Source of the DNA: Alphaproteobacteria bacterium
GTDB taxonomy: Bacteria; Pseudomonadota; Alphaproteobacteria; MPNO01; UBA830
Length of the DNA stretch: 64,000 nt
Assembly (NCBI GenBank): GCA_964291215.2
Contig: OZ219791.1
Location: 832,001 to 896,000, forward strand
Direction of reading: 5' to 3'
Within the stretch, counting starts at the first letter, position 1. Every line of letters starts with the position of its first letter. This document shows positions 9,950 through 59,208 of the stretch, one piece after another. Position numbers and translations under genes: made by a program. Below the pieces are notes generated by a model that made no database searches, was not told the DNA's origin, and was given only the letters and a program-made list of their open reading frames with translations.

Positions 9950-10008
9950 CTACAGGGCGGCTAGTTAACGCAGATCAGGACTCAATACAAGGGCATGCGC
10001 GTCGCCGT

Positions 10009-10150
10009 CAGGACTTTCCCACGCTGCACTCGATCTTGCCGACTGCTGATGGAGGGAGGTTGTACAGCCTGCCGGGTTTTCTGGCTTTGGGGCCGTCCAC
10101 GGGTCGCCGCAGCCGAAAAACCTGGCAAGAATGCAGAAATTTGTGCCCTA
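10009..10150. mobile_element. Terminal fragment of an ISAs1-type element (second subfamily)
   Basis: CAGGACTTTCCCACGCTG and following ~100 bp resemble the element end at 32905-33000. Confidence 0.6.
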
Positions 10151-10164
10151 TTCAGCGGTCATTG

Positions 10165-10260
10165 GTAACTGCCCCCCCTGGTTTCGACTTGATGTCGGGG
10201 TGGAGCAACGAATGGGTTTTCGTTGAGATCTGACACTGCAGATCGATTCGGTTAGTGTGA
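10165..10260 (+). mobile_element. IS66-family left-end fragment, truncated at IS630
   Basis: GTAACTGCCCCCCCTGG... matches left ends at 17819, 51862, 59388. Confidence 0.8.
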
Positions 10261-10265
10261 ACTTC

Positions 10266-11516
10266 CTAGTAGTATAACATTATTGGATTGACGAATATAG
10301 TGACTTCAGTTTCGTTCGGGCATCCTTCGTCGTGAAACGCCAGTCGACAGTGACATCGGCCGCATTGCGCCGTTCCGCCCACGCCGCCGTCTCCTGCCGC
10401 ATGGTGTCTCTGTCGGGAATGCGTCGCCGAAGGCATTGCCGCGACAGCGCACCGATCTCGATTTCGGCCATGTTGAGCCAGCTTCGGCGTGTAGCGAAAC
10501 TCGAACCGCTTTCGCACCCGCCTCCTCGGGCTCGAAGGCTTCATACAGCGACTGTGCGTGTTCAGATTGTCCAGCACGATCTTCCTGTCGGGGAAATGGA
10601 TGTCGGCAAGCTCCCGGATGAAGTGCGCCCAGTCCCGCGGCGGTCGGTGACTTTCACCGTGCGCCAGTTCTCGTTGGGCGCAAAGGCCATGAAGAGGTTG
10701 GCCGTGCCGTTGCGCTCATATTCATAGTCGACCACCTCCGGCTGACCGGGGGATGCGGGTTTCCTGCTGCCGGCTGGCCTCGCACACCAGCACCTCATCC
10801 CCGGCAAAGTCCCGCTGATAAATGTCAAGTACGTCCGCCGCTACGAACTGTGCGCTCCGGTGCGGTGGAATGCACCAGTACTGCTTCAGCCACGGTTTGA
10901 TCTCTTTTTTTAGCGTCTTCCTGACCGTCTCTTCCGAAATGCGCTCGACAATCTCCATCTCCACCAGACGGCCGGCGAGCAGCTTCAGCGTCCACAGCCC
11001 TCGGGCGGGGACGAACAGGGCGACCAGCTTCGCCTCCATCGCCCCGTCCAGCCGTTTTGGCCGGCGGTTCACCTGCTCCTTGCGGCTGAGGGCGGCGTCC
11101 AGCCCCTCCAGGACGCAGCGCTTGCGCAAACGCTCGACCGTCGCCGTGCCCAGCCCTTGCGCAATGTCGGCATCGACAAGCCGAGCGCCGTCGCGCCCCT
11201 AGTCGGCCAACATCAGGATTTGTGCCCGGCGCCAGGCAGCCCCGGTGCCGTCGACAATTGCCTTCAGATCCTGGCGCTCCTGCGCTGAAAGGGTCACGCG
11301 GTAGAGCTTCCTGCCCCGAGAGTTGGCCATATGCGCCGCTCCTGTCATTGCGCCGAAGACCTGCGGGCATGCCCGTTGTCCGGACCTGCGCATGGGGCTG
11401 CCTGCCTGTTCGGCATCTGCCCGTGTGGATATCGACACTGTCCGGATTCCAACGGATGCCGACACGGAAATACTACCCACAAAAAAACCATCAATACAAT
11501 GCCGGTGGACTACTAG
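10266..11516 (-). mobile_element. IS630-family element, degraded (copy 1)
   Basis: CTAGTAGT...ACTACTAG ends at a CTAG site; fragments DYEYERNGTANLF, LDNLNTH, LNMAEIEIGAL, DWRFTTKDARTKL across frameshifts. Confidence 0.9.
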
Positions 11517-11770
11517 GCTAGCTCCGCCAAGTCCTGATCCTGGCTGAATATTACGGCTACATCGAGAGCGCCGTTGCGCGCGATTCGCACCATGTCGAGA
11601 CCAATCCGAAGGTCTGTTTCCTTCTCGCGCTGTGCCGGCACACCATGCGTCGTACCGTCCGGAAGCGGGACCCGCTCGGAGCGCGGTTTCCGGGAGGTCG
11701 CGAGAATCCCGACGCGGCTCATTGCGGTCGGGCACCGCGCCCGGCACGCCGGATCTTTCCTGGCGTCGGG
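11517..11770 (-). pseudogene. NYN (LabA/DUF88-like) domain fragment
   Basis: REKETDLRIGLDMV...DVAVIFSQDQDLAE resembles NYN acidic motifs; cut by IS630 and IS66. Confidence 0.6.
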
Positions 11771-13872
11771 GTATCTCCTCACCCCTCCGCAGAGGCGGGT
11801 TTGGCGTTGTGCATCTTGATCATGTCGGCGGCGAGTGCGATCCGGATGGCGGCTGTAGCCGAGTGCGGCCATGGAGGTGAGATAGCTTGAGCTTCGGCAC
11901 CAGGCCTCGGCGTGGAGCCGGGTTCGGAAGCATCCGGACATCTTGACCTTTGCCATCCGGATTTTCTGCTCGCCGGTGTTGTTGGTGAAGCTGACGTCCG
12001 GGTGCGCCAGGCTAACTGGTGGAATGTTGCCGGGTGCAAGTCCCGGCAGGAAGAGAGGCTAACCACCACTTTCTCCGTGAACCATGCGTCGTGAGGCGTC
12101 AGGCGAAGCGTTGGGGAGCGGCAGGCGTGGGCCGGGCTATTGAGCCACGAGATGCTTTGAAACCGGAGTGCCGAGGTCGTGGCCGAAGGCAACACCCCGC
12201 GAGCCGCGTTGGTGAGGCGAGCGGGGGCTCCGCGGGGTCCGAGAACCATGGCCGAAGCAGGGACCTGGGAGGTCTTGCCCCTCTGTCGTGGAGGGGCCGC
12301 AGAGGAAAGGAACTATTCCGTAAACCGATGATGAACGAGAAGTCAGATTCGGCCATAGTACCGCTGAAGGCAGCGAACAAAGGTTCTCCGGAGCCTGCGG
12401 AGTTGCTGGAGGGAAGGGCAATGCGATTGGCCCGCGCCGCGCGCAGAAGCGGGGGTCACAGGCGGCTGAACGCAGGTAGCGAAGAGGAACCCGGAAGAGC
12501 GTCTTTACTCCACCACGTGATGTCCTGCACGACGCGTTCCATTCCTTGAGGAAGGACGCGGCGGCGGGGCGTTGTGTGGCAAGCGTACGCGGAAGGGGTG
12601 GAACTGGTTGACCTACACGACCGTGTGCACAGGGGTGCGTACCGAGCGCCTCCAGGGTCTACATTCCCAAGGAGGATGGAGGGCAACGACCGCTTGGCAT
12701 TGCCTCGCTGGAGGACAAGATTCTTCAGCGGGCAGTGTGATTCTGGTGCCGCTCTACGAAACGGAGTTCCTCGGTTTCAGCTACGGTTTCCGGCCGGGGC
12801 GCATCACGCGCTCGACGCCGTCACGGTGGAACGGCGGAAGGTCAACTGGATCGTTGACGCCGACATCCGTGGGTTCTTCGACAATCTCGACCGCGACCAT
12901 CTGATTGCGATGCTCGAGAAACGGATCGGGGGGTTATCCGGCTGATCATCAAGTGGCTGAACGCCGGCGTCATGGAAGGGACCGACTGGCAAGGGAACAC
13001 CGCAGGGGGCGATTGTATCGCCCTGCCTCGCGAACGTTTACCTGCACTACGTGCGACTGGTTCCAGAACCACTGGCGCAAGCGGATGGCTGGAGGCGACA
13101 CGATCATTATGCGGACGACTTCGTGTGCGGCTTTCAGCATCTGGGCGATGCGCAGCGCTTTCTCCGGGACCTTGGGGAGAGGCTGGCCCACTTGAACTGC
13201 ACCCGGAAAATCATCGAGTTCGGTCGGTTTGCCAGAGCGAACCGCCGGAAGCAGGGCAAGACGTTCGACTTCCTCGGCATGACGCACTTCTGCGAACAGA
13301 CGAGGAAAGGCAGGTTCAGGGTCGGTCGCAAACCGTCTCGCAAACGGGCACCCTGCGGCGGATCAAGGGGGCCTTGCGCATGCGATGGCACGACAACCGG
13401 CACGAAACGGCCAAGTGGTGAGTTATCAACGGCTGCTACTACGCCGTCCCGGGAAGCAGTCAATCCCTGCAGGGGTTCATACACCAATGCAAACGGCTGC
13501 TCATGCGTGCCCTTCGGCGACGCTCCCAAAAGGACTTCACCGGGGACATAGACACCCTTGCCACCGCCCACTGAGCCAGCATCCGCCACCCGTGGCCAAA
13601 CCAGCGCCTTGTCGTCAGGGGAGGAGCCGGATGCGAACAGCGCATGTCCGGTTCTGTGCGGGGGGACCGGGGCAACCCGGTTCCCTACCGCAATGTCGCT
13701 CATGAAGCGCAGGACGGACTCTTCGTGCCTTGCGAGACGCTCCTGGAGGTTGTGCGCGTTCGCAATCCGTCCGCGTTTTTCTTTCTGTCGGGGCGGGATT
13801 TCAGGCAGTTCCTTCGCCCCCCTCCCCGGTCAGGATGGTCCGGTATCGCTTGATGACGCTGCGACGGTCGGC
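11771..13872 (-). mobile_element. IS66-family 3' remnant (divergent variant) interrupted by a group II intron
   Basis: Right end GTATCTCCTCACCCC at 11771; KRYRTILT, LRFMSD|PDVSFTNN..EQKIRMAKVKMSGCFRT. Confidence 0.85.
12002..13694 (+). mobile_element. Group II intron with frameshifted RT/maturase
   Basis: 5' GTGCG; domain V GAGCCGGATGCG...CGCATGTCCGGTTC (~13623-13655), domain VI and terminal AAT; RT fragments FLGFSYGFRP, WIVDADIRGFFD, YADDFVCGF, FDFLG. Confidence 0.92.
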
Positions 13873-13975
13873 CTTATATGATCAGGTTTTGTCCCCGTGA
13901 TGATGCAATCATCCACAGCGGTCGGGGGCGGGAAAATGTGGATAACCTCGACTATGGGAGAGCGCCCGGTCCATG

Positions 13976-14170
13976 GTTGCAGAGAGATTCCGCTCCCTTG
14001 TGCGAGAACGTACAGGGGAGCGGGGATCAAACGATCTCCGCGGAGGTTGCCGTTTCGCCCCTGGCCTTGCAGAGTCGTTCCCGAGCGTGGTCGGCCAACC
14101 TCCTTTGGCGTCCCTTGCGTCCTGAATGGATGCTTGGGTTTGAACCGTATCATCACAAGGCGAGGAGCAA
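13976..14170 (+). ncRNA. Putative bridge RNA of IS110 copy 1 (boundaries approximate)
   Basis: 5' hairpin; GGAGGTTG..CAACCTCC stem enclosing TCCCGAG (14079-14085, complementary to target flank CTCGGGA); second loop ATGGATGCT (14126-14134) identical to element right end. Confidence 0.8.
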
Positions 14171-14174
14171 GGGA

Positions 14175-14983
14175 TGATGGTCAAGGTAGTAGCAGGGGTC
14201 AGCAAGGCCAGTCTGGACATCTGGCGCGTCGTTTTGCGAACGACGCCACGGGCGCGTGGCTTCGCAGCCTCGAGGTGACCCGTGTGGTGATGGAGGCGAC
14301 AGGTCGCTATCACCGCAGGGTTCACCAGTGTCTTCATGACCGGGGCTTCGAGGTTGTCTTGGTCAACCCGTTGCGGGCTCGGCGCTTCGCCGAGGCGATG
14401 GGCCATCTGGCCAACCGCGTTGACGCCAAGATCGGCACGGTGCGATCTCGAGCCTGTGGCCCCTCAGGAAGCCTTCCTCAAGAGCCTAGGGGATCTCCTG
14501 GTGCCGCGCTTGTCGACGCCAGGCAAGTGGCCAAATGAGGTGGATGGCGAGACCGTCACAAGGGCCTCGGCGGCCGATCTCGATGACCGCATTGCCGGCG
14601 CGGCGATCAAAGCGGTGATCGCCGGTGATCCCGAGCAGAGGTACGCCATCCTGACCTCGATCCCCGGTCCAGTGACCGCCGCAGCCCTTCTTTGTTGGAT
14701 GCCCGAACTCGGCAGTCTCGACCGTCGTCAGGCGGCAGCCTTGATCGGGGTGGCGCCGATAGCCAACGACCACGGCGCTCGGCATATCCGAGGCGGGCGC
14801 CGGAGGCCACGTGATCTCCTGTTCATGGCCGCGACCTCGGCTGCACGCTTCAACGCGGATCTGGTGTTCGAACGCCACAAGACCGCCGGCAAGGCCCACA
14901 AGGTCGCCATTGTCGCCGTGATGCGCAAGCTCTGGCGAACACCTTGCTGCGACAGCAGCGTTGCCCGAAGCACCGGTGAGTGA
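14175..14983 (+). pseudogene. IS110 DEDD recombinase, frameshifted and internally deleted
   Basis: RuvC-like and Tnp domain motifs split over frames; the first catalytic Asp and the KTD and SG motifs appear deleted. Confidence 0.88.
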
Positions 14984-15000
14984 GCGAAGGAGACCCCCTC

Positions 15001-15438
15001 ATGGCCCTCACCTCTGCCGAGAAACAGCGCCGTTATCGGGAACGCCGCAAATCTCTGCCCACGGAAAGCCTCGTCGTTCCCGTGCGCAACGCTGGCGCGA
15101 TGCGGTGGCTCGGTGCAGTGCAGGAGCACTGTCGGGACTGTCTCGACAGTCTCCCCGACGCCCTGCGCGACACGGCTTGCGGAGAACGTCTGCAGATCAT
15201 CGTCGAGGCTGACATCGCGGATCTTGAGGACATCGAACCGCCGCGCGGCTACGGACGGGACACTTGGAACCCCATTGAACATGATAACGTTACCATGCAC
15301 GGGGACGCTGGACGGCAAGGTGGCCGCGCTCACGTGACCGTGAGCAATGGACGGCAACCCGCCGCCGGGACCACAAGCTGCATGTCGCCTCACTCGCAGG
15401 ACATCGACAAGGCGGAACCCCGGACCGCCTGTGGATAA
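15001..15438 (+). CDS. Small accessory protein inside the IS110 element (possibly partly decayed)
   Basis: RBS GAAGGAG 14986-14992; MALTSAEKQRRYRERRK...DIEPPRGYGRD; deleted homologs at the same position in copies 2-4. Confidence 0.6.
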   Translation: MALTSAEKQRRYRERRKSLPTESLVVPVRNAGAMRWLGAVQEHCRDCLDSLPDALRDTACGERLQIIVEADIADLEDIEPPRGYGRDTWNPIEHDNVTMHGDAGRQGGRAHVTVSNGRQPAAGTTSCMSPHSQDIDKAEPRTACG

Positions 15439-15495
15439 CCACAGAAAAAATTACCGCGGACACCCGCAAAAACCTTGCCTGGAAACATGGATGCT

Positions 15496-15870
15496 CGGGA
15501 TGGTGCGATGCCATCATCGACCGCGCCAGCGACTTGTCCTCGTCGGCAACCGGAACCACGCCGATCTCGCCAAGACGGCACGACAGGTGCCTGTCGGGAT
15601 AATCCGGCGACGGGGCCAGGGACTCCGGGGTCACCGAGCCTCCGGCAGGCCGAGTGCGGCGGAGAACTTCGGAAGCGCGGTCGAGGCACAGTTCTCCCTT
15701 CGCGTTCCGCCAGTCCTCACGCTCGCAGAGCTCACGTGCCAGGAAGGTCCGCGTGCAATCCCCGGCGCCAAGCCGTGCCTTCAGCCAGTCAACCGTCTCG
15801 CCGCCATAATGTCGCAGGCCGATTCTCATGGAACCGTATATACGGCGTCAGTTGCTTCGAGTATACAGTG
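15496..15870 (-). mobile_element. 5' fragment of a DUF4338-IS4-type element, target of IS110 copy 1
   Basis: MRIGLRHYGGETVDWL..LARELCEREDWRNAKGELCL..MMASHHPE, homologous to the 17789 ORF start. Confidence 0.75.
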
Positions 15871-17818
15871 TTCGGTTGAAAGGATGTGGACGGCGGTGAC
15901 GGCGTCGAAGGCGAGGCACTTCTTCAGATCGTCGGCCCTGTTGAGCCGGCGGTTTTTGATCCGGGTCCCGGTCTTCAGCGTGCGGAACTAGGTCTCGATG
16001 CTCCATCGCGTCCGGTACCAGCGCAGGACGGTCGCCGCGTGCACGGCCTCCGCTTGCGCCGGGCGCTCAGCAGCAGCAGCGCCTCGTCGCCGTCATCGGT
16101 CTTGCTGGCCGAGACCGCGAACATGGACACAGGTTCCGCGTCGCCCTCGCGTTGCGGCGGCGCCACCTCGACCTGTGCCGTGCGGATCTCGAGATGGACA
16201 ACGCGCTTCTTGCGGGCGCACGGGCCGGCGGCGGCCGGGATCGTCAGCTCCGTCACCGCCACGGGCCGCCGGGCCGCGACATGCTCCCACAGGCACTCCT
16301 CGTTGCCGTTGGGCGTCCGCACGCGCTGTCTCGCCGAGCGGCTCGCCCGCACCAGCAGCGCAGCCCCGGTGTCCACGGCATGGGCGAGCAGCTCCCGGAA
16401 GTCGCCCTCGCGGTCGCAGACCGAGACCACCCGCGTGTCCGGGCAGGCCGTCGCGAGCTCTCGTGCCCGCTCGAGACCGGCGACCCGGCGCCGGCTGTCC
16501 TCCCCGGGCTCCTGCCGGAAGGCCGCGTCCATCGTGAACAGGCCCAGGGGCCGGCCCTCCGGCGTCACCGCCAGACCGGCATGGGCGAGAATGTCGACGC
16601 TCCCCTTGTCGCCCCCGCCGATCCCGTCAGGACCCTTCGTCGACCCCGGGCCGCTGTAGTCGAGTGCCGTCGTGTCCTGTATCGCAAGGACAAGAGGCCC
16701 TGTCCGACAACGCTCGACTCGACATGCGCCTCCAGAACGTGCTCCATGGAGACCCTCGGGTTCGACAACAACCGGCAGGCGGCCTTCTGCTCCGCCTTCT
16801 CCGAAAAGATGACCGGCAGGTCCTCCCCCATGTTCTCCATCCAGGCCCGGCCCATGTCAACGATGCGCCGCCGCATTCGCCCGTCGGTATGGCGCGTGCG
16901 CCCGTACTCCCGCTCCGCCCAGTCCGCGTCAGTGCCGTCATAGGCGCCCGCCAAGGCGCCGAGTGGACGTCGCTGTGTCCCGTGGAGCGCCGCCCGCCAG
17001 CCGCTCTCCAGCGCCAGGACCCGCACCGTGCGAACCTCGCCGCGGCGCCCGCTGGTCCGCCCGGCCACGGTCCAGCCGGCGCAGTGGTAGCAGTAACCGC
17101 TGTGCTCCCACCGGACGCACCGCATAACGGGCCTCCCAGTCGTCGGCGATGCGCTCCGTCGCCATGCGCAGGACCCGGGAGGCCAGCCCGTAGACCCGGA
17201 CGCCGGGAAGCAGGAGAAACCGATGATGGCAGATCACGCGCCTGATGTTGGCGGCGCGGGCGTCGGCAGACCATCCGATCCACTTGTCCCGCGCCCGCAG
17301 CTGCCAGGTCGCGGACCCGAAGCCGATCCCGCCGAGCGTGCCGTGGTGCTGCGAGCGGACCCAGTAGCGCATCTGGCCGCCGGGCGAGCGCGCCCATCCC
17401 AGCGGGTGGTGCGTCGCCATCATCGCCTCCCAGAGCCGGCGATCGTCGGTGCCGCCCACCAGTTCGAGCGAGACCGGGCCGAGATCCTGCAGCAGGCAGG
17501 CGAGCTTGGTGTCGGGCACGTCATCGGACGGGACGGCGGGCACGACGGTCGGATCGGGGGTGCTCCGCGGCGGCGGAAGCTCGAGACCCACGCGCTCGGC
17601 GAGCGCCGGCAGCACCTTCGCTGCCGCCGACAGGCACGGACGACCAAGCGCGTTGCGCCAGCCGGTGCGCTCGCAAAGCTCGCGAGCCAAATCGTGACGG
17701 GTGGCGGCGGCGGAGCGCAACGCGCCAGCGAACCAGTCAAGTGTCTGTGAATCGAAATGGCGGAGACCGACCTGCATGCCCGCAAGCATGCACGAAACGA
17801 ATTACCTATACAAATCTG
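15871..17818 (-). mobile_element. IS4-family (IS50/Tn5-like) element with N-terminal DUF4338 domain, degraded, 3'-truncated
   Basis: HHPLGWARSPGGQMRYW..RARDKWIGW..RFLLLPGVRVYGLAS; AEREYGR..DGR; VVSVCDREGDF; FRTLKTG. Confidence 0.85.
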
Positions 17819-19299
17819 GTAACTGTTCACCCCCTGGTTCCGGCTTGATGTCGGGGTAGAGTAACGAACGGGTTTACGTGGAGATTTGACATTGCAGGCC
17901 GATTCGCTTAGTGGTGGTCATCGAGAACGACGGGGACCGCCAGTGGGCTACTTTGGATCGAAGGCGACGAGCGGGCTGTGCCAGCTGCTTCCGGGGCTCC
18001 AGCCCCCGCATGATCTGTATGTGGAAACGCATCTCGGAGGCGGCGTGCTGATGAAGCGCAAGGCCGGGTGATGGCGACGGGCGGCGCGCGAGGAGTTCGA
18101 AGCGGCCAAGACCGCGGCGCTGCCGGCAAGGTGGCGGAAGAGGCCGTCATCCGCGTCTTCGTCATCCTGCTCGACATCCTCATCGTCGTCCTTCTGGAGA
18201 AGACCACGCACGAGCCGGAACTCCGGTCTGCCGCCGTCACAGACGGACAAGAGCGTGCCGGGAGCAACGGCCCGAAGCCGAACCAGCAGATGGGCGACAA
18301 CCTGCGCAAGATCATCGTCGAGGAGACGGTCGCGGCCTGCGACGCCTGCGGCGCCGACGGCCCCGTCGATCGGGAGCGCCGCACGACATCGTGTTCGAGG
18401 TCGTCGAGCGTCGACGCCGAGGAATGCCCGAAGTGCAAGGCCCGGGGCCGGTTCCCCGACAACATCCCGTGCAGTACGGCATCCAGGCCCTCGTCATCAA
18501 CCTGCTGGTCGCCCAGATGCTGTCCCTGCGCCGTGCCGTTGCGTTCGTGCAGGCGATCTCTGGCATCAAGCTCTCCGAGGCCTCGGCTATGCTTTCACGA
18601 TGTGTCATGGGAGGAAGCCGCCGTGGCGCACCTCCTGCAACGCCCGATGTCGATGATTTCGGATCAACAGTAAGTGGCTCCATGTCGTGGGGCCCTGACG
18701 TGCAAGTTCCCGCACCGCAAGCGCGGGCAAGAGATCGGCCCGTGCTACAAGGGCGTCCTGGGCCTCGTATATGGCAGTGTAGCCACCAGCTGTGCGGTAG
18801 CCACCAGCTGCGCGAACTGACCTTTGTCGTCGAGGCTACCGCGCGACTGATGAAGGGCCTGCTCCGCGAGGTCTGCCACAAGGTCAACAAGAGCGCATCC
18901 AAGACCCTGAACGACGCCGGGCGCAAGCGCTACCGCACCATCAGGGCGCCAAGGAACTGCCCGACATCCCGACGAAAGGAAAACGTGGACGCAAGTCCGA
19001 CGCGCACAACCTGCACGAACGTCTCGTGAAACACGAAAACCTGCGCTTCATAGACAACCCCGACGTCAGCTTCACCAACAATGCCGGAGAACAGAAGATC
19101 AGGATGGCAAAGGTCAAGGTGTCCGGATGCTTCCGCTCCACGCAAAAGCATGGTGCCGGGGCTCAAGCTACCTCACCTCCATGGCCGCACTCGGCTACAA
19201 CCCACTCGTCGCCACCCAGATCGCCCTCGACGGAAAAGCCGCAGACATCATCAACGAGCACTATGGCCAATCAGAACCCAACAAGGGGTTAGTAGATAC
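17819..19299 (+). mobile_element. IS66-family MTase-bearing element, deleted derivative
   Basis: TIRs GTAACTGTTCACCCC / GGGGTTAGTAGATAC; 8-bp TSD CAAATCTG. Confidence 0.93.
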
Positions 19300-19319
19300 C
19301 AAATCTGATACTTTGAAAG

Positions 19320-20060
19320 GGTCCTGACCCGCGGAGCCCCGGGGCTGTTTGCCCGGCTGCGCGCCTGCCGGGGCACCCTGCAGATCGACATTCCCCGCCT
19401 GACGTCCCGGCCGAAGTCCTCGGGGCGGAAGAAGCAGCCCGGCCGCACGCTGCGCCGGAACGCGGTACTCGAATTGCGCTGGTCACGCTGCCGGCGACTG
19501 CCAACTACCCCGATGCCGCGCCCGTGACCGCGCTGCATCTCCTCGAGACGGACCCGCCGACCGGGGAGTTCCCGGTGGAATGGTTCCTGCTGACCGACCT
19601 TCCGGTGGACCACGCGGCGCGGGAGACCGTCGGCTGGTATGCGCTGCGCTGGCGGATGCTGGTTCCGGGTGCTGAAGTCCGGTTGCCGGGCGGAACACCT
19701 GGCGACGCGCAAGGCCTGCCGGCTGGAACGGCAGATCACGATCCACGCCGTGATCGCCTGGCGTCTTTTCGGGCGGGACGTTCCGACGATCGAGCCCGAC
19801 TGCCTGTTCTCTGACCTGGAACTCCGCTTCCTCTCCGACTATGCCCGCCGATACCGGCTGGACCCACACTCGGGGCGGCGGTGACACTGGTGGCGATCCT
19901 CGGCGGATATCTGAACCGCAAGCATGATCCGCTACCGGGCGACCAGACGATGTGGCTATCCGCGACTGGCCACCGCCACGCTGGCCTATGAATGCCTGCT
20001 TGAGGCTCTCGGCCTGGATCCGACATCGGAAGGATACAATCAAGCTCTGCGCAATTTATG
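19320..20060 (+). pseudogene. IS4-family transposase C-terminal remnant
   Basis: PVEWFLLTDLP, WYALRWR, FRVLKSGCRAE, LGGYLNRKHDPLPG. Confidence 0.8.
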
Positions 20061-21261
20061 CCCTCGTTCCATAGTGAAGTGCAACACATGATGGGTTGTG
20101 GTCATGTGTTTTTAGACGCATGATGTTGCGGAGCGGTAGCGGCGAGAGTTTCTGTGCAAGATGAAGGGAGCTTGTTCATGTCCAAAGGCTACCGTCACCT
20201 ACGAAGAGCGATGCCAGATTGAGGCGTTACAGAAAAGGGGTCTTTCACAAGGTGCGATTGCTCGGCAGCTGGGCCGATCAACAATTTTCCGGGAGATCAA
20301 GCGCAACACCGGGGGACGGGGTTACCGTCACAAGCAGGCGCAAAGGATGGCAGAAACGCGCCGCAGGGCCGCCTCGTCTGTTTCCTGGCGGTTGACGCCT
20401 CGGGTTGAGGCTCAGAAAAAGCTGCGGGAGGGCCCCGAGCAGCGGCCGTTTTCGACTGGAGGGCCGTGGGTCGGCAACGGATCCATGATCGCCGAAGATC
20501 GGAGAGCCGGGGGCGTCTTGTGGAAGAAGCTTCGGCGGCGCGGCAAGAAGCCGAACTGGAAGGGTGGATGCCATTCCGGCCGGGTGGACATTTCCGAGCG
20601 CCCTGCGGAGGCAAAGGAACGGGTTGGCGACCGGGAGCCATCATCGGCAAAGCTCACAGTGGAGCTGTCGTGTCGATCGTGCCACGAAATACGCCTTGCT
20701 GGGTGGACAGAAAGACACGGTTGGTATGATCCGCCTGCTCGGCTCTGGTGCGCTATTGGTCCACACAATCACAACGGCAAGGAGTTCGCAGACCACAGGC
20801 GTGTCGCTGAAGCATTTGACGCAGATTTCTTCTTCGCCTTTCCATTCTTGAGAGCGCGGCTTGAATGAGCACACCAACGGCCTGGTGCGGGAGTACTTCC
20901 CGAAGGGCACGGACTTTCGCGCGACATGCAACGAAGATGTTCAGAAGGTGCAGGATCGGCTCAACACTCGGAAAGTCCCGGGATCGCCGACGGAGGTAAT
21001 CTTGAAGTGAAACCGCCCTGACCATCTGCGTTCCGAAGCCGCAACGTGCAGCAGGGTCCATGCCGCGCGACGGCGAAATAGTGGCTTGAAGCCGACAAAG
21101 GCGTTGCATAAGCTTGATGTTGAAGGAACTGAAGCTGTTCCTAGGCGGAATCGAGAGTGGCAGAGGGGGAAAATTTGTGCAACATCCGGCCCTCATCGCA
21201 GTGAGGGCGTAGCCCGAACGGAGATGAGGGCCGGATGTTGCACTTCAGACTGGAAGTGGGG
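20061..21261 (+). mobile_element. IS30-family element, degraded (copy 1)
   Basis: TIR cores TGAAGTGCAACA / TGTTGCACTTCA; ERCQIEAL..IARQLGRSTIFREIKRN, NGKEFA, NEHTNGLVREYFPKGTDF. Confidence 0.9.
21177..21243. repeat. 21-bp perfect inverted repeat with 25-nt loop at IS30 right end
   Basis: GTGCAACATCCGGCCCTCATC-N25-GATGAGGGCCGGATGTTGCAC. Confidence 0.9.
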
Positions 21262-21395
21262 ATATATAAAAGCTGACGGTGCTTTCGCTACGCGTGGTGT
21301 CGGACGGAGCGACGTTCTTCGAGGGTGTCGACCCGAGATGGCGGATCGCGCTTGGGAGGACTTCATGACCGAGATCGGGACATAAGGGCCGGACG

Positions 21396-25199: not shown

Positions 25200-25626
25200 G
25201 TTGTCGGCATGTCTCGTGTTGTTCCCGATCAGGTGCAACCGCTCAAACCGTTCCTCGCGGCGCCAGCCAATTCAATGGTCCCGCGGCGCACAGCTGAAGG
25301 CGCCCGTCTGCCAGCCCGCAGCGCCAATCCACCGTCCGCGCCAGGTGAACACGTAGCGCAGACCTCGACCGGCAAACTGCTTGAAACCAAGATAGTGATG
25401 ACGGTCAACCACACGGTTCCAGCGACACACCTCATCGGGTCGCGCAAGGCCCACAACCACATCCCGGAGCGTAAAACTCTCCGGCGTCGCCTCGAACAAA
25501 CCCGTTCACTGTCCCTCTATCACAACACCGGATGTCACGGCGCTTCACAAAAAGTCAACGAAAATGCGAATCATCCGGAACAAGCGGAACCAATCCTTCC
25601 AATAAACCCAGCGTGGGATAGTTTTG
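25200..25626 (-). mobile_element. 5' fragment of a DUF4338-ISAs1-type element
   Basis: TIR CAGCGTGGGATAGTTTTG ending at 25626; HHYLGFKQFAGRGLRY..PRDH..IGNNTR. Confidence 0.75.
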
Positions 25627-26101
25627 CCGCTGTCGCAAGGTGATCCCATGCTTGTTGATGTGATGTGATCGGAGTCCTGATCGCGGCGCGGGTTGACGCG
25701 TTCGAGGCTGCGATTTTGAGATTTGCTGACGCGCTGTTGCGGCGCGGGGTGCGATTGGTCGACCTATCCGGGGCGAGCGAGAGGCCTTGGTTGCCGGGCT
25801 CGAAAGCTTGCGGTTTCTGTCGGGGAGAGAGGCGCGGTCAGCCTGGTCTCGTGATTGCGTGCAGGACCTGCTTGCGCTTGTCCGCATGGTTGTGTCGACG
25901 AAGCTGTTGAAGGGTTTGGTCAGCTTGCGCTTGTTGTGGATGATGACGGCGATTGCGAGGGTGATCGCGTTGTTTGCGAACGCGTTCGGAGCATGGAGTC
26001 GTCTTCGCGGAAGGTGGCATCGCGGACATGATGATGGCTCTCGACTACCCAGTGTCCGCGATTCCATGCGAGCAACTGTTGCGGCGAGGCGCGTTCGACC
26101 G

Positions 26102-27457
26102 AGCATCCATGTTTCTTGGCAAGGTTTTTGCGGGTGTCTGTGGTGATGTTTTCTGTGGTTGTCCACAAGCGGTATGGGATTTGCTCTGCGATCGAGGCGA
26201 CATGAAGCTTGTGGTCCCGGCGGCGGGTTGCCGTCCATTGGTCACGTGAACGCGGCTACCTTGCCGTCCCCGGGCACGTGACCGTCCGGGTTCCAGGTGT
26301 CCCAAGGCGGTTCGATCTCCTTGATGTCGACCTCGACGATGATCTGCAGACATTCTCCCCAAGTCGTGTCGTAGAGGGAGACTGTCGATACAGTCCCGAT
26401 CGCGCTCTCGGCAGGGGTGAGGGCCATGAGGGTGGTCTCCTTCGCTCACTCACCGGTGCTTCAGGCAACGCTGCTGTCGCAGCAAGGTGTTCGCCAGAGC
26501 TTGCGCATCACGGCGACAATCGCGACCTTGCTTGCCGGCAGTCTTGAGGCGCTCGAACACGCTTGCCAGGTCCGCGTTGAAGCGGGCCGGTTGCGGCCAG
26601 GAGATCGCGTGGCCTTCGGCGCCCGCCACGGATGTGCCGAGCACCGTGGTCGTTGGCGCCACCCCGATCAAGGCTGCCGACGCTGCCGAGTTCGGGCATC
26701 CAGAAGGGCCGCGGCGGTCACCGGACCGGGGTCAGGATGACGTAGCTCTGCTCGGGATCACCGGCGATCACCGCTTTGATCGCCGCGCCGGCAATGCGGT
26801 CATCGAGATCGGCCGCTAAGGCCCTTGTGACGGTCTCGCCATCCACCTCATCTGCCACCTGCTTGGCGTCGACAAGCGCGGCACCAGGAGATCCTCCAGG
26901 CTCTTGAGGAAGGCGGAGCCACAGGCTCACCGTGCCGATCTTGGCGTCGAAGCGGTTGGCCCATCGCCTCGGCGAAGCGCCCGCAACGGGTTGACGAGAA
27001 TAACCTCGAAGCCCCGGTCATGAAGACACTGGTGAACCTTGCGGTGATAGCGGCCTGTCGCCCACCACCCGGCTCACCCCGAGGCCGCGAAGCCACCTGC
27101 CCGTGGCGTCGTCCGCAAAACAATGCGCCAGATGTCCAGACTGGCTGACCCCTGCTACTACCTTGACCATCGTCCCTTGCTCCTCGCCTTACGATGGGTT
27201 CAAACCCAAGCATCCATTCAGGACGCGAGGGACGTCAAGGGAGGTTGGCCGACCACACTCGGTCGCGGCTCTGTCAAGGTCGAAATGGCAACCTCCGCGG
27301 AGATCGTTTGATCTCCGCTCCCCTGTGCGTGTTCGCTCAGGGAAGCGGAATCTCTCTGCAACCATAAACCGGACGCTCTCCCACAGATCCACATTTCCCC
27401 GCCCCCAACTGCTGTGGATGATTTCATCATCAAGGGGACAAAACCTGGTCATATAAG
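26102..27457 (-). mobile_element. IS110 element copy 2
   Basis: CT core at both junctions; homologous to 13873-15495. Confidence 0.9.
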
Positions 27458-27526
27458 GTCATGGCGTGTTCGGTTTTCCGGATTTCTTGAATTCGACGTG
27501 CCGAGTGACGCGGAAGATCTGCTTGA

Positions 27527-28752
27527 CTAGTAGTCCACCGGCATTGTATTGATGGTTTTTGGTGGGTAGTATTCCTGTGTCGGCATCCGTTGGAATCTGG
27601 ACAGTGTCGATATCCACACGGGCAAGATGCCGAACAGGCAGGCAGCCGCAGCCCCATGTGCAGGTCCGGACAACGGGAGCGGCGCAATGACAGGAGCAAC
27701 GTATATGGCCAACTCTCGGGGCAGGAAGCTCTACCGGGTGACCCTTTCAGCGCAGGAGCGCCGGGATCTGAAGGCGATTGTCGACGGCACCGGGGCTGCC
27801 TGGCGTCGGCGCCGGGCACAAATCCTGATGCTGAGGGGGCGCTTGTCGATGCCGACATTGCGCAAGGGCTGGGCACGGCGACGATTGAGCGCTTGCGCAA
27901 GCGCTGCGTCCTGGAGGGGCTGGACGCCGCCCTCAGCCGCAAGGAGCAGGTGAACCGTCGGCCGAAACGGCTGGACGGGGCGATGGAGGCGAAGCTGGTC
28001 TCGTCCCCGCCCGAGGGCTGTGGACGCTGAAGCTGCTCGCCAGCCGTCTGGTGGAGATCGTCGAGCGCATTTCGGAAGAGACGGTCAGGAAGACGCTAAA
28101 AAAAAGAGATCAAGCCGTGGCTGAACTGGTGCATTCCACCGCACCGGAGCGCACAGTTCGTGGCGGCGGACGTGCTTGACATTTATCAGCGGGACTTTGC
28201 CAGGGACGAGGTGCTGAGACCAGCCGGCAGCAGACGAAGGAAACCCGCATCCCTCGTCCCCCGGTCAGCCGGAGGTGGTCGACCATGAATATGAGCGCAA
28301 CGGCACGGCCAACCTCTTCATGGCCTTTGCGCCCAACGAGAACTGGCGCACGGTGAAAGTCACCGACCGCCGCGGGACTGGGCACACTTCATCCGGGAGC
28401 TTGCCGACGACCATTTCCCCGACAGGAAGATCGTGCTGGTCAATTTGAACACGCACAGTCACTGTATGAAGCCTTCGAGCCCGAGGAGGCGGGTGCGAAA
28501 GCGGTTCGAGTTTCGCTATACGCCGAAGCACGGAAGCTGGCTCAACATGGCCGAAATCGAGATCGGTGCGCTGTCGCGGCAGTGCCTTCGGCGACGCATT
28601 CCCGACCGCGACAGCATGCTGCGGGAGACCGTGGCGTGGGTCGAGCGCCGCAATGCGGCCGATGTCACTGTCGACTGGCGTTTCACGACGAAGGATGCCC
28701 GGACGAAACTGAAGTCACTATATCCATCAATATAATAATGCTAGACTACTAG
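27527..28752 (+). mobile_element. IS630-family element copy 2
   Basis: Inserted at CTAG of GCTTGACTAGTTGATC (empty site visible at ~37742). Confidence 0.92.
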
Positions 28753-32459: not shown

Positions 32460-32720
32460 GCGACAAATTTGTGCACGCCCTGCGATTTCAGGCTGCCCTT
32501 CGCTCCCGGAAGTCGTCCAATCTGTTGCTGTGGACGGAGCAGCGCAGAGCGATAAGGGCATTGGCGCCGTCGAGGCTCCAGTGCATGTCGCCGTGTTTCA
32601 TGTGACCTCCGATCACGGACTTGCAGGCGCCCTCGACGACGCCTGTTGAGATGCACAGGTTCTGTTCTCGGAACCGGGGATAGCCCATGCGCGCCCGGTT
32701 TGTCTTGAAGTAGGCCATGT
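32460..32720 (-). pseudogene. ISKra4/UPF0236-like transposase C-terminal remnant
   Basis: YFKTNRARMGYPRFREQNLCISTGVVEGACKSVIG..MHWSLDGANALIALR. Confidence 0.75.
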
Positions 32721-32904
32721 GTAACTGCTCACCCCTTGGTTCTGGCTTGATGTTGGAGTAGAGCAACGAACGGGTTTTCGTGGAGATTTTACACTGTAGA
32801 TGGATTCGTTAGTGGTGGTCATCGAGAGCGACGGAGACCGTCGGTGGGCTACTTTGGATCCAAGGCGACGAGCGGGCTGTGCCAGCTGCTTCTGGGGCTC
32901 GGGT
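32721..32904 (+). mobile_element. IS66-family left-end fragment including the MTase start
   Basis: GTAACTGCTCACCCC; GYFGSKATSGLCQLL. Confidence 0.85.
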
Positions 32905-34600: not shown

Positions 34601-35060
34601 CAAGGTGATCCCATGCTTGTTGATGTGATGTGATCGGAGTCCTGATCGTGGCGCGGGTCGACGCGTTCGAGGCTGCGATTTTGAGATTTGCTGACGCGCT
34701 GTTACGGCGCGGGGTGCGATTGGTCGGCGTATCCGGGGCGAGCGAGAGGCCTTGGTTGCCGGGCTCGAAAGCTTGCAGTTTCTGTCGGGGAGAGAGGCTC
34801 GATCAGCCTGGTCTTGTGATTGCGTGCAGGACCTGCTTGCGCTTGTCGACATAGTGGTGTCGACGAAGCTGTTGAAGGGTTTGGGCAGCTTGCGTTTGTT
34901 GCGGATGATGATTGCGAGGGTGATCGCGTTGTTTGCGGGCGCGTTCGGAGCATGGAGTCGTCTTCGCGGAAGGTGGCATCGCGGACATGATGATGGCTCT
35001 CGACTACCCAGTGTCCGCGATTCCATGCGAGCAACTGTTGTGGCGAGGCGCGCTCGACCG

Positions 35061-37671
35061 AGCATCCATGTTTCTTGGCAAGGTTTTTGCGGGTGTCTGT
35101 GGTGATGTTTTCTGTGGTTGTCCACAAGCGGTGTGGGGTTTGCTCTGCGAGCGAGGCGACATGAAGCTTGTGGTCCCGGCGGCGGGTTGCCGTCCATTGG
35201 TCACGTGAACGCGGCTACCTTGCCGTCCCCGGGCACGTGACCGTCCGGGTTCCAGGTGTCCCAAGGCGGTTCGATCTCCTTGATGTCGACCTCGACGATG
35301 ATCTGCAGACATTCTCCCCAAGTCGTGTCGTAGAGGGAGACTGTCGATACAGTCCCGATCGCGCTCTCGGCAGGGCCGTGTCTCCTTCACTCACTCACCG
35401 GTGCTTCAGGCAACGCTGCTGTCGCAGCAAGGTGTTCGCCAGAGCTTGCGCATCACGGCGACAATCGCGACTTTGTGGGCCTTGCCGGCAGTCTTGAGGC
35501 GCACCAGGTCCGCGTTGAAGCGTGCCGGTTGCGGCCAGGAGATCGCGTGGCCTTCGGCGCCCGCCACGGATGTGCCGAGCACCGTGGTCGTTGGCGCCAC
35601 CCCGATCAAGGCTGCCGACGCTGCCGAGTTCGGGCATCCAGAAGGGCCGCGGCGGTCACCGGACCGGGGATCGAGGTCAGGATGGCATACCTCTGCTCGG
35701 GATCACCGGCGATCACCGCTTTGATCGCCGCGCCGGCAATGCGATCATTGAGATCGGCCGCCGAGGCCCTTGTGACGGTCTCGCCATCCACCTCATCTGC
35801 CACCTGCTTGGCGTCGACAAGCGCGCCACCAGGAGATCCTCCAGGCTCTTGAGGAAGGCGGAGCCACAGGCTCAAGATCGCCCAGCCGATCTTGGCGTCG
35901 ACGCGGTTGGCCCATCGCCTCGGCGAAGCCCGCAACGGGTTGACGAGAATAACCTCGAAGCCCCGGTCATGAAGACACTGGTGAACCTTGCGGTGATAGC
36001 GGCCTGTCGCCCACCACCCGGCTCACCCCGAGGCCGCGAAGCCACTTGCCCGCCAGCTCGTGGCGTCGTTCGCAAAACAATGCGCCAGATGTCCAGACTG
36101 GCCTTGCTGACCCCTGCTACTATCTTGACCATCGTCCCTTGCTCCTCGCCTTACGATGATACGGGTTCAAACCCAAGCATCCAGCGAGGGACGTCAAGGG
36201 AGGTTGGCCGATCACACTCGGTCGCGGCTCTGTCAAGGCCAAGGTCAAAACGGCAACCTCCGCGGAGATCGTTTGATCCCCGCTCCCCTGTGCGTGTTCG
36301 CTCAGGGGAGCGGAATCTCTCTGCAACCATAGCTCTCCCACAGATCCACATTTTCCCGCCCCCAAATGCTGTGGATGATTTCATCATCAAGGGGACAAAA
36401 CCTAGTAGTCTAACATTATTGGATTGACGAATATAGTGACTTCAGTTTCGTCCGGGCATCCTTCGTCGTGAAACGCCAGTCGACAGTGACATCGGCCGCA
36501 TTGCGGCGCTCGACCCACGCCACGGTCTCCCGCAGCATGGTGTCGCGGTCGGGAATGCGTCGCCGAAGGCATTGCCGCGACAGCGCGCCGATCTCGATCT
36601 CGGCCATGTTGAGCCAGCTTCCGTGCTTCGGCGTGTAGCGAAACTCGAACCGCTTTCGCACCCGCCTTCTCGGGCTCGAAGGCTTCATACAGCGACTGTG
36701 CGTGTTCAGATTGTCCAGCACGATCTTTCTGTCGGGGAAATGGTCGTCGGCAAGCTCCCGGATGAAGTGCGCCCAGTCCCGCGGCGGTCGGTGACTTTCA
36801 CCGTGCGCCAGTTCTCGTTGGGCGCAAAGGCCATGAAGAGGTTGGCCGTGCCGTTGCGCTCATATTCATAGTCGACCACCTCCGGCTGACCGGGGGATAC
36901 GGGTTTCCTGCTGCCGGCTGGTCTCGCACACCAGCACCTCGTCCTTGGCAAAGTCCCGCTGATAAGTGTCAAGCACATCCTCCATCGCCGCTACGAACTG
37001 TGCGCTCCGGTGCGGTGGAATGCACCAGTTCAGCCACGGCTTGATCTCTTTTTTTAGCGTCTTCCTGACCGTCTCTTCCGAAATGCGCTCGACGATCTCC
37101 ACCAGACGGCCGGCGAGCAGCTTCAGCGGGCACAGCCCTCGGGCGGGGATGAGCAGGCTAGGGCGACCAGCTTCGCTTCCATCGCCCCGTCCAGCCGTTT
37201 CGGCCGACGGTTCACCTGCTCCTTGCGGCTGAGGGCGGCGTCCAGCCCCTCCAGAACGCAGCGCTTGCGCAAACGCTCGACCGTCGCCGTGCCGATGCCC
37301 AGCCCTTGCGCAATGTCGGCATCGACAAGCCGAGCGCCCCCTCGTCAGCCAGCATCAGGATTTGTGCCCGGCGCCGACGCCAGGCAGCCCCGGTGCCGTC
37401 GACAATCGCCTTCAGATCCCGGCGCTCCTGCGCCGAAAGGGTCACGCGGTAGAGCTTCCTGCCCCGAGAGTTGGCCATATGCGCTGCTCCTGTCATTGCG
37501 CCGAAGACCTGCGGGCATGCCCGTTGTCCGGACCTGCGCATGGGGCTGCCTGCCTGTTCGGCATCTGCCCGTGTGGATATCGGCACTGTCCGGATTCCAA
37601 CGAACGCCGACACGGAAATACTACCCACCAAAACCATCAATACAATGCCGGTGGACTACTAGTCATATAAG
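35061..37671 (-). mobile_element. IS110 element copy 3, with IS630 inserted near its left end
   Basis: CT cores at 35061-2 and 37670-1; same ISAs1 site as copy 2. Confidence 0.9.
36402..37662 (-). mobile_element. IS630-family element copy 3
   Basis: CTAGTAGTC...GACTACTAG ends; homologous to copies 1 and 2. Confidence 0.92.
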
Positions 37672-40935: not shown

Positions 40936-40972
40936 ACAAAAACTTAACAATATTGTCGTGCACCCCGGTCCG

Positions 40973-56373: not shown

Positions 56374-57762
56374 CAGGGCATCTTTCGGATCGTGCCGGTC
56401 ACCTGCGTGGCGAGCGGCGCGGATATTCCGCGGCTGCGACGCCGGGAGGCTTGCGTCAACCACGGCGATCCCACGCTAGGTTTGTTGGAAGGGTCGGTTT
56501 TGCTTGTTCAGGATGATTCGCATTTTCGCTGGCTTTTTGTGAAGCGACGTAGTATCCGTTGTCGTGGGGGCAGCGGATTTTTTTGAGACGACTCCGGAGG
56601 GTTTTGCGCTCCGGGATGTGGTTGTGCGCCTTGCGCGGCCTGATGTCGCTGGAACCGTGTTGTTGACCGTATCTTGGTTTCAAGCAGTTTGCCGGTCGAG
56701 GTCTGCGCTACGTGTTCACCTGGCGCGGGCGGTGGATTGGTGCTGCGGGCTGGCAGACGGGCGCCCTCAGCTGCGCACCCGTTGGCTGGCGCCGGCGAGG
56801 AACAGTTCAGGCGGTTGCCGGGAACAACACGAGGTTTGTTGTTCCTGGTGGTCGTTTCCGGGCCTTGCCTCGTTTGCGTTGTCGCGGATGGTGCGGCGGC
56901 GACTGGGAGGCTGCCGTTGCTTGTTGCGGAGTCGTTTGTCTTGCCGACGAAGTTCAGCGGCACCATGTACAAGGCGGCGAACTGGGAGTGCGTTGGCAGG
57001 AGCTATGCGCGCGCCAGCGGGCGCTATACCGACCGGGGAGGCGAAGGATCTTTACGTGTTTCCGCTGCGTCGTGACGTCGGCTGCGGGATCGTTCGCCGC
57101 TTCCTGTGGCGTGGGAGTTGCGGGCGCCGCTGGTCGGCGCAGGAGTTGCGCTCGATTTATCAGCGGCGCTTTCCGGCGTGCGCAGGGGCACCGCATCGCC
57201 TCGGTGCTGTGCGTGATTTTGCTGGCTTGCGAACCGGCACGGTGCGGTTGCGGCGGCGCACTACGACGCAGAAGGAGCTGGAGCAGCATGGAAGAACAGG
57301 GACAAGCCGGTCTCCACCGTGCACCGGGTGCTACCGACCCGGGATGGATCGAGGATGCGGCGCGCAGCCGCAGGTCGGCAACGCGGTCGATGGCAAGCGC
57401 ACCGGCGAGGATCATTACGAGACGGTCTCGCTGGCCGGTTTCGATCCTCAACTATCACGACGGGGAGATCGCTGCCGTCCACGCCGCGACGGCACCGGTT
57501 GCTGGCCGTCTGCTCACCCTCGACGCGCTCCACACCACCCGCGAGGCTGATCATCGAGACCCATCGCGCGGACTGATGGTCAAGGGCAATGCACCTTCGA
57601 GAGAGCATCAACTGGAAGACCGCCAGCGCTACAACGAAAAGCCCGCGCATGGCCGCCAGCGCACCATCTTCACCCCGCTGGCGAAGATGATCAACTAGTC
57701 AAGCAGATCTTCCGCGTCACCCGGCGCGTCGAATTCAAGAAATCCAGAAAACCGAATACGCC

Positions 57763-59208
57763 ATATGACTAGGTTTTGTCCCCTTGATGATGAAATCATC
57801 CACAGCAGTTGGGGGCGGGAAAATGTGGATCTGTGGGAGAGCTATGGTTGCAGAGAGATTCCGCTCCCTTGAGCGAACACGCACAGGGGAGCGGGGTGCG
57901 GGGATTAAACGATCTCCGCGGAGGTTGCCGTTTTGACCTTGACAGAGCCGCGATCGAGTTTGGTCGGCCAACCTCCCTTGACGTCCCTCGCTGGATGCTT
58001 GGGTTTGAACCCGTATCATCACAAGGCGAGGAGCAAGGGACGATGGTCAAGGTAGTAGCAGGGGTCAGCAAGGCCAGTCTGGACATCTGTGCGACGGGCA
58101 TTGTTTTGCGAACGATGCCACGAGCTGGCGGGCAGGTGGCTTCGCGGCCTCGGGGTGAGCCGGGTGGTAATGGAGGCGACAGGCCGCTATCACCGCAAGG
58201 TTCACCAGTGTCTTCATGACCGGGGCTTCGAGGTTATTCTCGTCAACCCGTTGCGGGCGCTTCGCCGAGGCGATGGGCCATCTGGCCAAAACCGACCGCG
58301 TCGACGCGTTGATGTTGGCCAAGATCGGCTGGGCGATCTCGAGCCTGTGGCTCCGCCTTCCTCAAGAGCTTGGAGGATCTCTTGGTGCCGCGCTTGTCGA
58401 CGCCAAGCAGGTGGCAGATGAGGTAGATGGCGAAGGCGAGACCGTCACAAGGGCCTCAGCGGCCGATCTCGATGATCGCATTGCCGGCGCGGCGATCAAA
58501 GCGGTGATCGCCGGTGATCCCGAGCAGAGGTACGCCATCCTGACCTCGATCCCCGGTCCGGTGACCGCCGCGGCCCTTCTTTGCTGGATGCCCGAACTCG
58601 GCAGCGTCGGCAGCCTTGATCGGGGTGGCGCCGATGGCCAACGACCACGGTGCTCGGCACATTCGTGGCGGGCGCCGAAGGCCACGTGATTTCCTGTTCA
58701 TGGCCGCAACCGGCCCGCTTCAACGCGGACCTGGTGCGCCTCAAGACTGCCGGCAAGGCCCACAAGGTCGCGATTGTCGCCGTGATGCGCAAGCTCTGGC
58801 GAACACCCTGCTGCGACAGCAGCGTTGCTGGGCGCCTGAAGCACCGGCACGGTAAGTGAGCGAAGGGGACACCCTCATGGCCCTCACCCCTGCCGAGAGC
58901 GCGATCGGGACTGTATCGACAGTCTCCCTCTACGACACGACTTGGGGAGAATGTCTGCAGATCATCGTCGAGGCCGACATCAAGGAGACCGAACCGCCTT
59001 GGGACACCTGGAACCCAGACGGTCACGTTACCATGCCCGGGGACGGCAAGGTAGCCGCGTTCACGTGACCAATGGACGGCAACCCGCCGCCGAGACCACA
59101 AGCTTCATGTCGCCTCGCTCGCAGGGCAAATCCCACACCGCTTGTGGACAACCACAGAAAACATCACCGCAGACACCCGCAAAAACCTTGCCAAGAAACA
59201 TGGATGCT
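57763..59208 (+). mobile_element. IS110 element copy 4 (left junction eroded by a small deletion)
   Basis: Homologous to copies 1-3; retains AKTDRVD; right end ATGGATGCT. Confidence 0.88.

Follow-up and report, generated by a model that had tools for sequence, protein, structure and literature searches.

The 64,000-nt window, by which we mean the whole stretch of DNA analysed, carries four copies of an IS110 element. Copy 1 (13873..15495, + strand, 1,623 bp) runs from CT core to CT core, and all of its features lie on the + strand. Its left end (13873..13882) consists of the CT core and the right-donor half and precedes the segments of a predicted bridge RNA: a 5' stem-loop (13990..14023; inverted repeat I5 and fold), a target-binding loop closed by a stem and enclosing an inner hairpin (14042..14103), and a donor-binding loop (14110..14175; fold z -3.4) made up of an outer stem, left donor guide, hairpin, right donor guide, and handshake GC. 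The target loop holds the left target guide TTTCGCCCC (14053..14061) and the right target guide TTCCCGAG with the handshake dinucleotide CG (14078..14087), and the donor loop holds the left donor guide ATGGATGCT (14126-14134) and the right donor guide ACAAG (14155-14159). A frameshifted recombinase pseudogene with DEDD RuvC and Tnp domains (PF01548, PF02371) follows at 14177..14983, with its first catalytic Asp and its Ser loop deleted, and a long non-coding right end (14984..15495), including the left-donor half ATGGATG-CT, completes the copy. The right flank (15496..15883) comes from host H, a DDE element present in many copies, and an empty copy of it showed a Tnp_DNA_bind match and a weak DDE_Tnp_1 match in Pfam. 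The left flank (13700..13872) belongs to a different multicopy repeat, and copy 1 is a hybrid junction, since empty copies of that repeat run on into another sequence.

The other three copies all lie inside host A, a DruA-DDE transposase element. Copy 2 (26102..27457, -) carries the left guide TTTCGACCT (27277-27285) and the right guide CGACCGAG (27258-27265). Copy 3 (35061..37671, -) carries the guides TTTTGACCT and CGACCGAG and is interrupted close to its left end, which lies at 37663-37671, separated from the remainder by a 1,247-bp insertion; we take the nested element (36404..37655, -) to be of the IS630 type from its motifs and TA/CTAG ends. In nine IS110 copies (this one and eight others), the left end was displaced by insertions of 1.1-2.7 kb a few bases inside, making it a hotspot for other elements. 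Copy 4 (57760..59208, +) has lost its left junction, and its right guide CGATCGAG (57951-57958, +) mismatches its flank CTCGGTCA. The four copies were 83-84% alike over about 1,150 nt.

A sequence-only reading of this DNA had recognised the IS621 bridge RNA layout, with the target loop followed by the donor loop and a CT core, and this was borne out as a predicted RNA. Every letter and coordinate that it quoted proved correct on re-reading of the sequence, including the donor match (ATGGATGCT at 14126-14134 recurs at 15487-15495), the target-loop match of copy 1 (TCCCGAG at 14079-14085, whose reverse complement stands at 15494-15500), and the TGACCT shared between the left guide TTTTGACCT (36242-36250) and its left flank. 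The chance of any single such match anywhere in a 300-nt left end was 0.001-0.023, and the matches fell at fixed loop positions. The match of CGACCGAG in copies 2 and 3 to the flank CTCGGTCG also stood, but its quoted length of 8/8 was about one base too long, since right-guide position +6 matched in only 0.39 of the pairs in the source genome (G000) and 0.09 of those in relatives. Long terminal inverted repeats were absent, as had been stated, although a sub-terminal 3-bp inverted repeat (CAT/ATG) exists. Two site types do occur in the window, but copies 2-4 have identical flanks because all occupy the same site in a multicopy host IS, which leaves two independent flanks in the window instead of four. 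Only copies 1 and 2 kept all 9 nt of the donor guide. The left guide of copy 1, TTTCGCCCC, fits an empty-site allele of its right-flank host and not its current left flank, with which it shares one contiguous non-core base; TTTCGACCT of copy 2 showed three contiguous matches to its own left flank.

A consensus fold of 18 sequences left both target guides unpaired, with double changes in just 3 of 34 target-stem pairs. Burial of the guides in stems, which the sequence-only reading had regarded as evidence against itself, was thus not seen in the consensus, but single-sequence folds paired parts of the guides, which weighs against the explanation favoured below. The donor-loop outer stem showed compensatory changes between G000 and relatives. 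Per-position match rates defined the target guide as 4-5 bases to the left and 5 to the right of the core. The left donor guide matched the element's own joined ends over 8-9 nt, and the right donor guides (ACAAG, ATAAG, GTAAG, or GCGAG) stood against the ends CTTGT, CTTAT, or CTCGT, with one mismatch between the right donor guide of copy 1 and its own end. The first base of the target-loop handshake was C in 86 and T in 36 of 123 cases, against a G at donor position -1, and the donor-loop handshake G faced a C at target position -1 in 94 of 104; these bases fit post-exchange pairing by the rule described in PMC11208158. The 5' strand of the target-loop stem of copy 1 lacks 6 nt that were kept in only 1 of 65 copies. 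Class B copies, for example that at G000:C1:340552 (-), combine a 6-nt loss from the 5' strand with a 5-nt loss from the 3' strand of this stem, yielding a perfect 10-bp stem, which represents either chance or a selected repair.

Joining the ends in silico produced a sigma70-like -35/-10 pair, TTGCCA/T-17 nt-TATGAC/T, in all four copies tested, as a consensus match only. The predicted hexamers in copy 1 are TTGCCT in the right end (15475-15480, +) and TATGAT in the left end (13877-13882, +). IS621 likewise forms a junction promoter across its joined ends (PMC13626964). No end-to-end joint of the element, as in a circle, was seen in the contigs searched. Empty host alleles carried a single CT and no duplication, corresponding to scarless insertion at a dinucleotide core.

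To the extent of its assembly (6.15 Mb, two contigs), G000 is rich in repeats: 35.5% of it is repeated DNA and 27.6% is present in at least five copies. BLAST searches of G000 returned 66 left-end and 70 right-end matches, of which 59 pair into full elements of 1,132-1,684 bp when a ceiling of 1,750 bp is applied; with left match c15 excluded from the alignment and c39 without a loop, 64 with a right guide remained. The GIDVSK motif was kept in 2 of 58 copies, and none kept three of the four catalytic motifs. The best tblastn matches in G000 contained stops and at least 35 gap residues, and no G000 copy had a recombinase with D, E, D, D, and S intact in one frame, so the assembly held no intact helper. 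Both Pfam domains, PF01548 and PF02371, were nevertheless found on copy 1 and on intact relatives; the missing catalytic residues mean that the copies are dead, not that they are non-members of the IS110 family. Two IS110-family genes of another subfamily (G000:C1:480856-481293 and 884303-884740) are located in open frames of 429-431 codons and were apparently spared by erosion.

Assemblies of marine Paracoccaceae and of other Alphaproteobacteria yielded intact relatives (98 loci confirmed, 79 kept), as did metagenomes (at least 106 matches, 80 kept). Their best PDB match was IS621, with E values of 4e-27 and 2e-29. The closest intact relative among the matches listed, L154, encodes a 315-residue recombinase that aligns to IS621 (E 2e-29) and retains both the DEDD and the Ser motifs; copy 1 was 85% identical to this 1,840-bp element, with 27 deletions of at least 4 nt. 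Among 59 guide-bearing relatives, 47 had 300 open codons. A DNA match was found in 1 of 40 related genomes, blastn against plasmid sequences gave no match to the element, the exact donor-loop pattern had 0 matches in metagenomes, and an Rfam gathering scan placed no family over the element, its matches being a group II intron and tRNA only. Assignment to the IS1111 group was considered and rejected: of 45 inverted repeats, the 25 longest included no terminal arms, and the guides lie upstream of the recombinase, not downstream. Judged by these comparisons, the element is an IS621-type IS110 with a predicted bridge RNA and a new member of this group of bridge systems, dead in this genome.

Guide/flank covariation over the genome copies, which the sequence-only reading had proposed as a check, was present for both guides, each of which takes in the core. 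In G000, the right guide matched 4.27 of 5 positions versus 3.29 after permutation (n=33 distinct pairs, 17 perfect; p=1e-4), and the left guide 3.08 of 4 versus 2.33 (n=24 distinct pairs, 10 perfect; p=1e-4). Within-genome permutation in other genomes gave 4.24 versus 3.59 for the right guide (p=0.001) and 2.91 versus 2.46 for the left (p=0.002). The idea of several specificities on one scaffold within one genome held in kind, but G000 has 17 target-guide pairs, not two, and all six other genomes sampled with at least four guide-bearing copies had 2-5 pairs each. Among 18 reconstructed sites, 13 matched a guide pair at 9/9 non-core positions, two had one mismatch, and three had two; five of the 18 were rebuilt from one junction and a chosen empty-host allele, and a minority allele was used in three (hosts H and I and the c39 left junction). 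The 13 matched sites correspond to ten distinct guide pairs; as background, 9/9 matches occurred at 0.06% of CT sites overall and at 1% of those reading C-CT-CG. The metagenome relatives L152, L154, L155, and L156 provided four further guide-flank fits by eye, two of them with wobble. Copies whose flanks do not fit their own loop, named beforehand as counter-evidence, do exist: 16 of 33 distinct right-guide pairs in G000 were imperfect over five positions, as were 14 of 24 left-guide pairs, which weighs against the explanation that follows.

That explanation, which we consider very probable, is that the element is a dead, much-amplified IS621-type IS110 that kept one donor loop and acquired 17 target-guide forms in this genome, ten of them probably guiding insertion into matching sites. 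When the recombinase was intact, the element would have excised as a circle, with a promoter forming across its joined ends, and inserted at 4-5 bases plus CT plus 5 bases read by its own loop; both steps are established for IS621, and we infer them here. New specificities would likely have come from single guide substitutions reshuffled between copies by recombination, and would likely have been favoured, as insertion consumes matching sites, mostly in other multicopy IS. Gene conversion between dispersed copies would then probably have distributed the 5-7-nt deletions, exchanged guides among site classes, and produced hybrid junctions like that of copy 1. The sequence-only reading had not foreseen that all copies are pseudogenes, that most lie inside other IS, that they are mosaic, or that natural reprogramming had already been published.

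Most G000 copies sit inside other IS elements. Pfam analysis of ten multicopy hosts found DruA in four, three of these with DDE domains; one other host had Tnp_DNA_bind and a weak DDE match, one an IS630-type HTH with DDE_3, and four had no Pfam match, among them host C, whose sequence overlaps that of host E. No frame tested gave a Pfam match for the multicopy host repeats L096, L098, and L104, which measure 1.5-1.7 kb. DruA (PF14236) was fused to or paired with multicopy transposases at L095:184-1941, L099, L100, and L101 and at 16938-17789 of the window; these transposases are of the DDE_Tnp_1_assoc and Tnp_DNA_bind types and host many IS110 insertions. Three sites were single-copy on both sides. 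Loss of gene insertions would yield the same skew to IS hosts without any aim at IS.

Perfect targets were scarce in empty host copies (7/23, 1/14, 1/22, 1/8, and 19/34). A first depletion control, based on windows conserved in occupied copies, overstated this effect and was replaced by comparison with all 11-mers of the same hosts, in which the effect was smaller: the targets fell at quantiles 0.18, 0.06, 0.008, 0.06, and 0.50, with a combined p of about 0.004 and no depletion in host E. This scarcity gives moderate support to target exhaustion.

The modest depletion under the unbiased control also suits a rather unlikely alternative, in which genuine insertions were few, the large site classes grew as cargo carried by their host IS or through conversion into empty host alleles, and the matches are mostly inherited rather than a product of repeated targeting. 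The occupied host A copies do cluster (p=0.0005), so part of class A was co-amplified; nine IS110 copies share one deleted left junction, unusable by the recombinase and also counted as a sign of conversion; and 6-7 fixed frameshifts are common to classes A, B, C, and E. Such copying accounts for copy numbers but not for the number of specificities: with one row per site and its majority guide, 11 of 16 sites matched perfectly, compared to 3.1 after permutation. Moreover, occupied copies of hosts B, C, and E formed no clade within the host family and showed no correlation between host and IS distances, and relatives with open frames covary likewise.

Guide diversity in G000 was 0.30, four times the 0.07 in the rest of the left end (57 haplotypes, p=2e-4). 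Nine of the 17 guide pairs formed one network of single substitutions, five of these nine having their own occupied site, and left and right guides were found in all four combinations. In another genome, five elements (L019, L021, L022, L026, and L060; four with open frames) had guides differing at 3-8 of 10 positions, while divergence was 1-9% across the coding sequences and, where it could be counted, 6-12% at third positions. These sister guides appear to diverge several-fold faster than the scaffold, in a comparison made against site classes none of which is truly neutral; at least one guide difference is built in, because the pairs were picked one per guide.

Guide change is most simply explained by point mutation and reshuffling under selection for unused sites, and this is, on balance, the probable account. 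We regard as quite improbable that a dedicated or templated process rewrote the guides instead, for example through the complex nicking half-matching DNA of its own loop. IS621 has been reported to recombine at half-matches (10.64898/2026.08.31.748434), the guide halves occur in all four combinations as noted, and L026 and L060 differ at three right-guide positions but by only 1.2-1.4% in the remainder. However, the right guide of L026 is that of L021 and L022 from the same genome, for which plain conversion suffices, and single steps join the nine G000 pairs.

Conversion has left further marks. In host A, 11 of 19 copies carried the right guide of another class, and these non-matching guides likely came from gene conversion. 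The distance between classes A and C was no greater than that within classes. As the copies are mosaic, many guides no longer fit their own flanks. Hybrids of two sites were flagged in 6 of 38 copies tested, copy 1 included, although one of them, c25, may alternatively be a further insertion. In its empty copies, the repeat that forms the left flank of copy 1 runs on into a sequence that the guide pair of another copy matches exactly, while both guides of copy 1 fit an empty allele of host H. Recombination between dispersed copies likely caused these mismatches and hybrids; gene conversion of dead IS was reportedly described by Cordaux in 2009. The window also contains a group II intron remnant (12037-13694) with 67-77 genomic copies. 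In the 3' core of this intron, 7-nt deletions were common to 36/67 and 41/67 copies; a group II intron ribozyme must act in cis, and the shared core deletions were therefore likely spread by conversion.

Deletions shared within such a core also bear on the idea that recombinase-dead copies moved on as bridge-RNA-only elements with a helper in trans, since lost, while their guides kept changing. This is unlikely in our view, even though the donor ends are common to all copies, class B copies are 2.5% apart and share seven frameshifts, and IS621 excision needs donor recognition only (10.64898/2026.08.31.748434). Shared deletions are found as well in the intron core that has to act in cis, the assembly lacks an intact helper, and the inner donor-loop strand was kept in just 29 of 65 copies. 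In classes A-C, the target loop had 29-36 deletions per kb and the CDS 23-27. Losses of equal density in the two regions speak against a non-autonomous phase in which the loop was protected.

All 11 repeat queries in G000 showed an indel peak at 5-7 nt. A set of 220 out of 1,157 repeat segments yielded 2,779 distinct indels; 1,663 of them (60%) measured 5-7 nt, compared to 281 single-nucleotide indels and 164 that were 2-4 nt long. The repeats concerned in the window are those at 10000-21271, 25213-30036, 32715-48945, 51856-53786, and 56457-61175. In alignments of the IS110 copies with their relatives, the gaps fell overwhelmingly in G000. The rate of 5-7-nt events per 100 substitutions increased about 10-fold or more, from 1.4 in two-copy repeats to 24 at 60 or more partners, whereas 1-nt indels stayed flat; at 1-4% divergence it was 3.3, 6.5, 10.7, 20.8, 25.4, and 33.8 with rising copy number, against 2.3-6.6 for 1-2 nt. 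The low-copy end of this trend is confounded by selection, as the substitutions of some low-copy pairs showed codon bias. In single-copy regions aligned with G002-G004 (71-77% identity, about 398 kb), gaps of 5-7 nt numbered 3 on the G000 side and 27 on that of the relatives, counts that are unpolarised and too noisy to be informative.

Microhomology was modestly enriched at the deletions (none in 25-36%, versus 52-57% at random positions), and the deletion ends showed no strict motif, only weak positional biases among non-independent events. Searches of G000 for candidate causes found no Ku, NucS, Piwi, or ATP-dependent ligase, while MutS and MutL were present. Two CRISPR arrays were identified (G000:C1:574394-581198, 97 repeats; C2:2068685-2069553, 17 repeats), and none of their 112 spacers targeted repeats of their own genome, the one weak self match lying in single-copy DNA. 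Loops of at least 5 nt may escape MutS, although our literature search found no paper on this point. As a working idea, the deletions arise or are favoured in heteroduplexes of diverged copies, where loops of five or more bases escape MutS; this leaves the sharp drop above 7 nt unexplained.

Assembly or polishing artefacts are a most improbable source of the mosaics and short deletions. About 27% of the genome does lie in repeats of at least five copies, and no contig among those listed spans the whole element. Yet guide variants, together with some of these deletions, recur in contigs of three runs from one study, one run possibly being the source sample; a 400-kb sample of G002, which belongs to the same genus, showed the same 5-7-nt peak (5-6 nt in its repeats); the IS110 copies of eight other assemblies had just two events of 5-7 nt; and the core genes in the window are intact. 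Samples of G003 and G004 contained too few repeats for this comparison.

A broader reading, which we offer only tentatively, is that this lineage erodes multicopy DNA by copy-number-dependent removal of 5-7 bases, spread between dispersed copies, and so silences transposons, introns, and RNA-guided elements in a bacterial parallel to repeat-induced mutation; the IS110 copies would then record, step by step, a bridge RNA walking to new targets under selection imposed by target exhaustion. A literature search, thin on subscription papers, found nothing on 5-7-nt, copy-number-dependent erosion. As far as the available text of PMC6054270 goes, indels in bacterial pseudogenes follow a power law with an excess of 3n lengths, in contrast to the 60% of 2,779 indels at 5-7 nt seen here. 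Endosymbiont IS fossil records (PMC3205602) resemble the present case in their many degraded copies and in conversion between dead copies.

The element shares with IS621 and ISCro4/IS622 (PDB 8wt6, 9t56), as these are described in the available text of PMC11208160 and PMC11208158, a left-end RNA, here predicted, with a 5' stem-loop and a target loop before the donor loop, a CT core without duplication, a junction promoter, handshake bases, and a DEDD and Ser recombinase. It differs from IS621 in its register (4-5 left + CT + 5 right, versus 7 + CT + 2(-5)), its donor ATGGATG-CT, a right end of about 575 bp, its many guide pairs per genome, targets mostly inside other IS, and the death of all copies. 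Longer right guides in orthologues, as well as guide-target covariation over thousands of orthologues, were already noted in PMC11208160; a search of the readable text of its supplements found no entry for this donor, and its Supplementary Data 1-2 (guide-target bins) may already contain same-genome variants. Natural re-direction has been described between ISEc11 and ISXne4, IS1111-group elements of two species with transposases 72% identical (PMC11187229), where the scaffold was likewise kept, the target-matching segments replaced, and the new target matched. Here, by comparison, 17 pairs occur in one genome among elements about 3-14% apart, and several more genomes are alike. Further related work is found in PMC12288879, 10.1101/2025.05.14.653916, and 10.64898/2026.08.14.744561; the same search returned no paper on a within-genome guide repertoire.

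Between-species natural reprogramming is thus in print and the mechanism class is known; this genome adds an unusually full record of natural retargeting. Published evidence on how bridge RNAs naturally acquire targets compares distant orthologues. With one scaffold and one donor, the 17 pairs, their intermediates, the occupied and empty sites, and the intact relatives make mismatch tolerance, exhaustion, and shuffling testable, and the 4-5 + CT + 5 register provides a natural long-right-guide scaffold for engineering. If its copy-number dependence holds, the 5-7-nt deletion spectrum would point to an undescribed way in which transposons are inactivated and genomes reduced.
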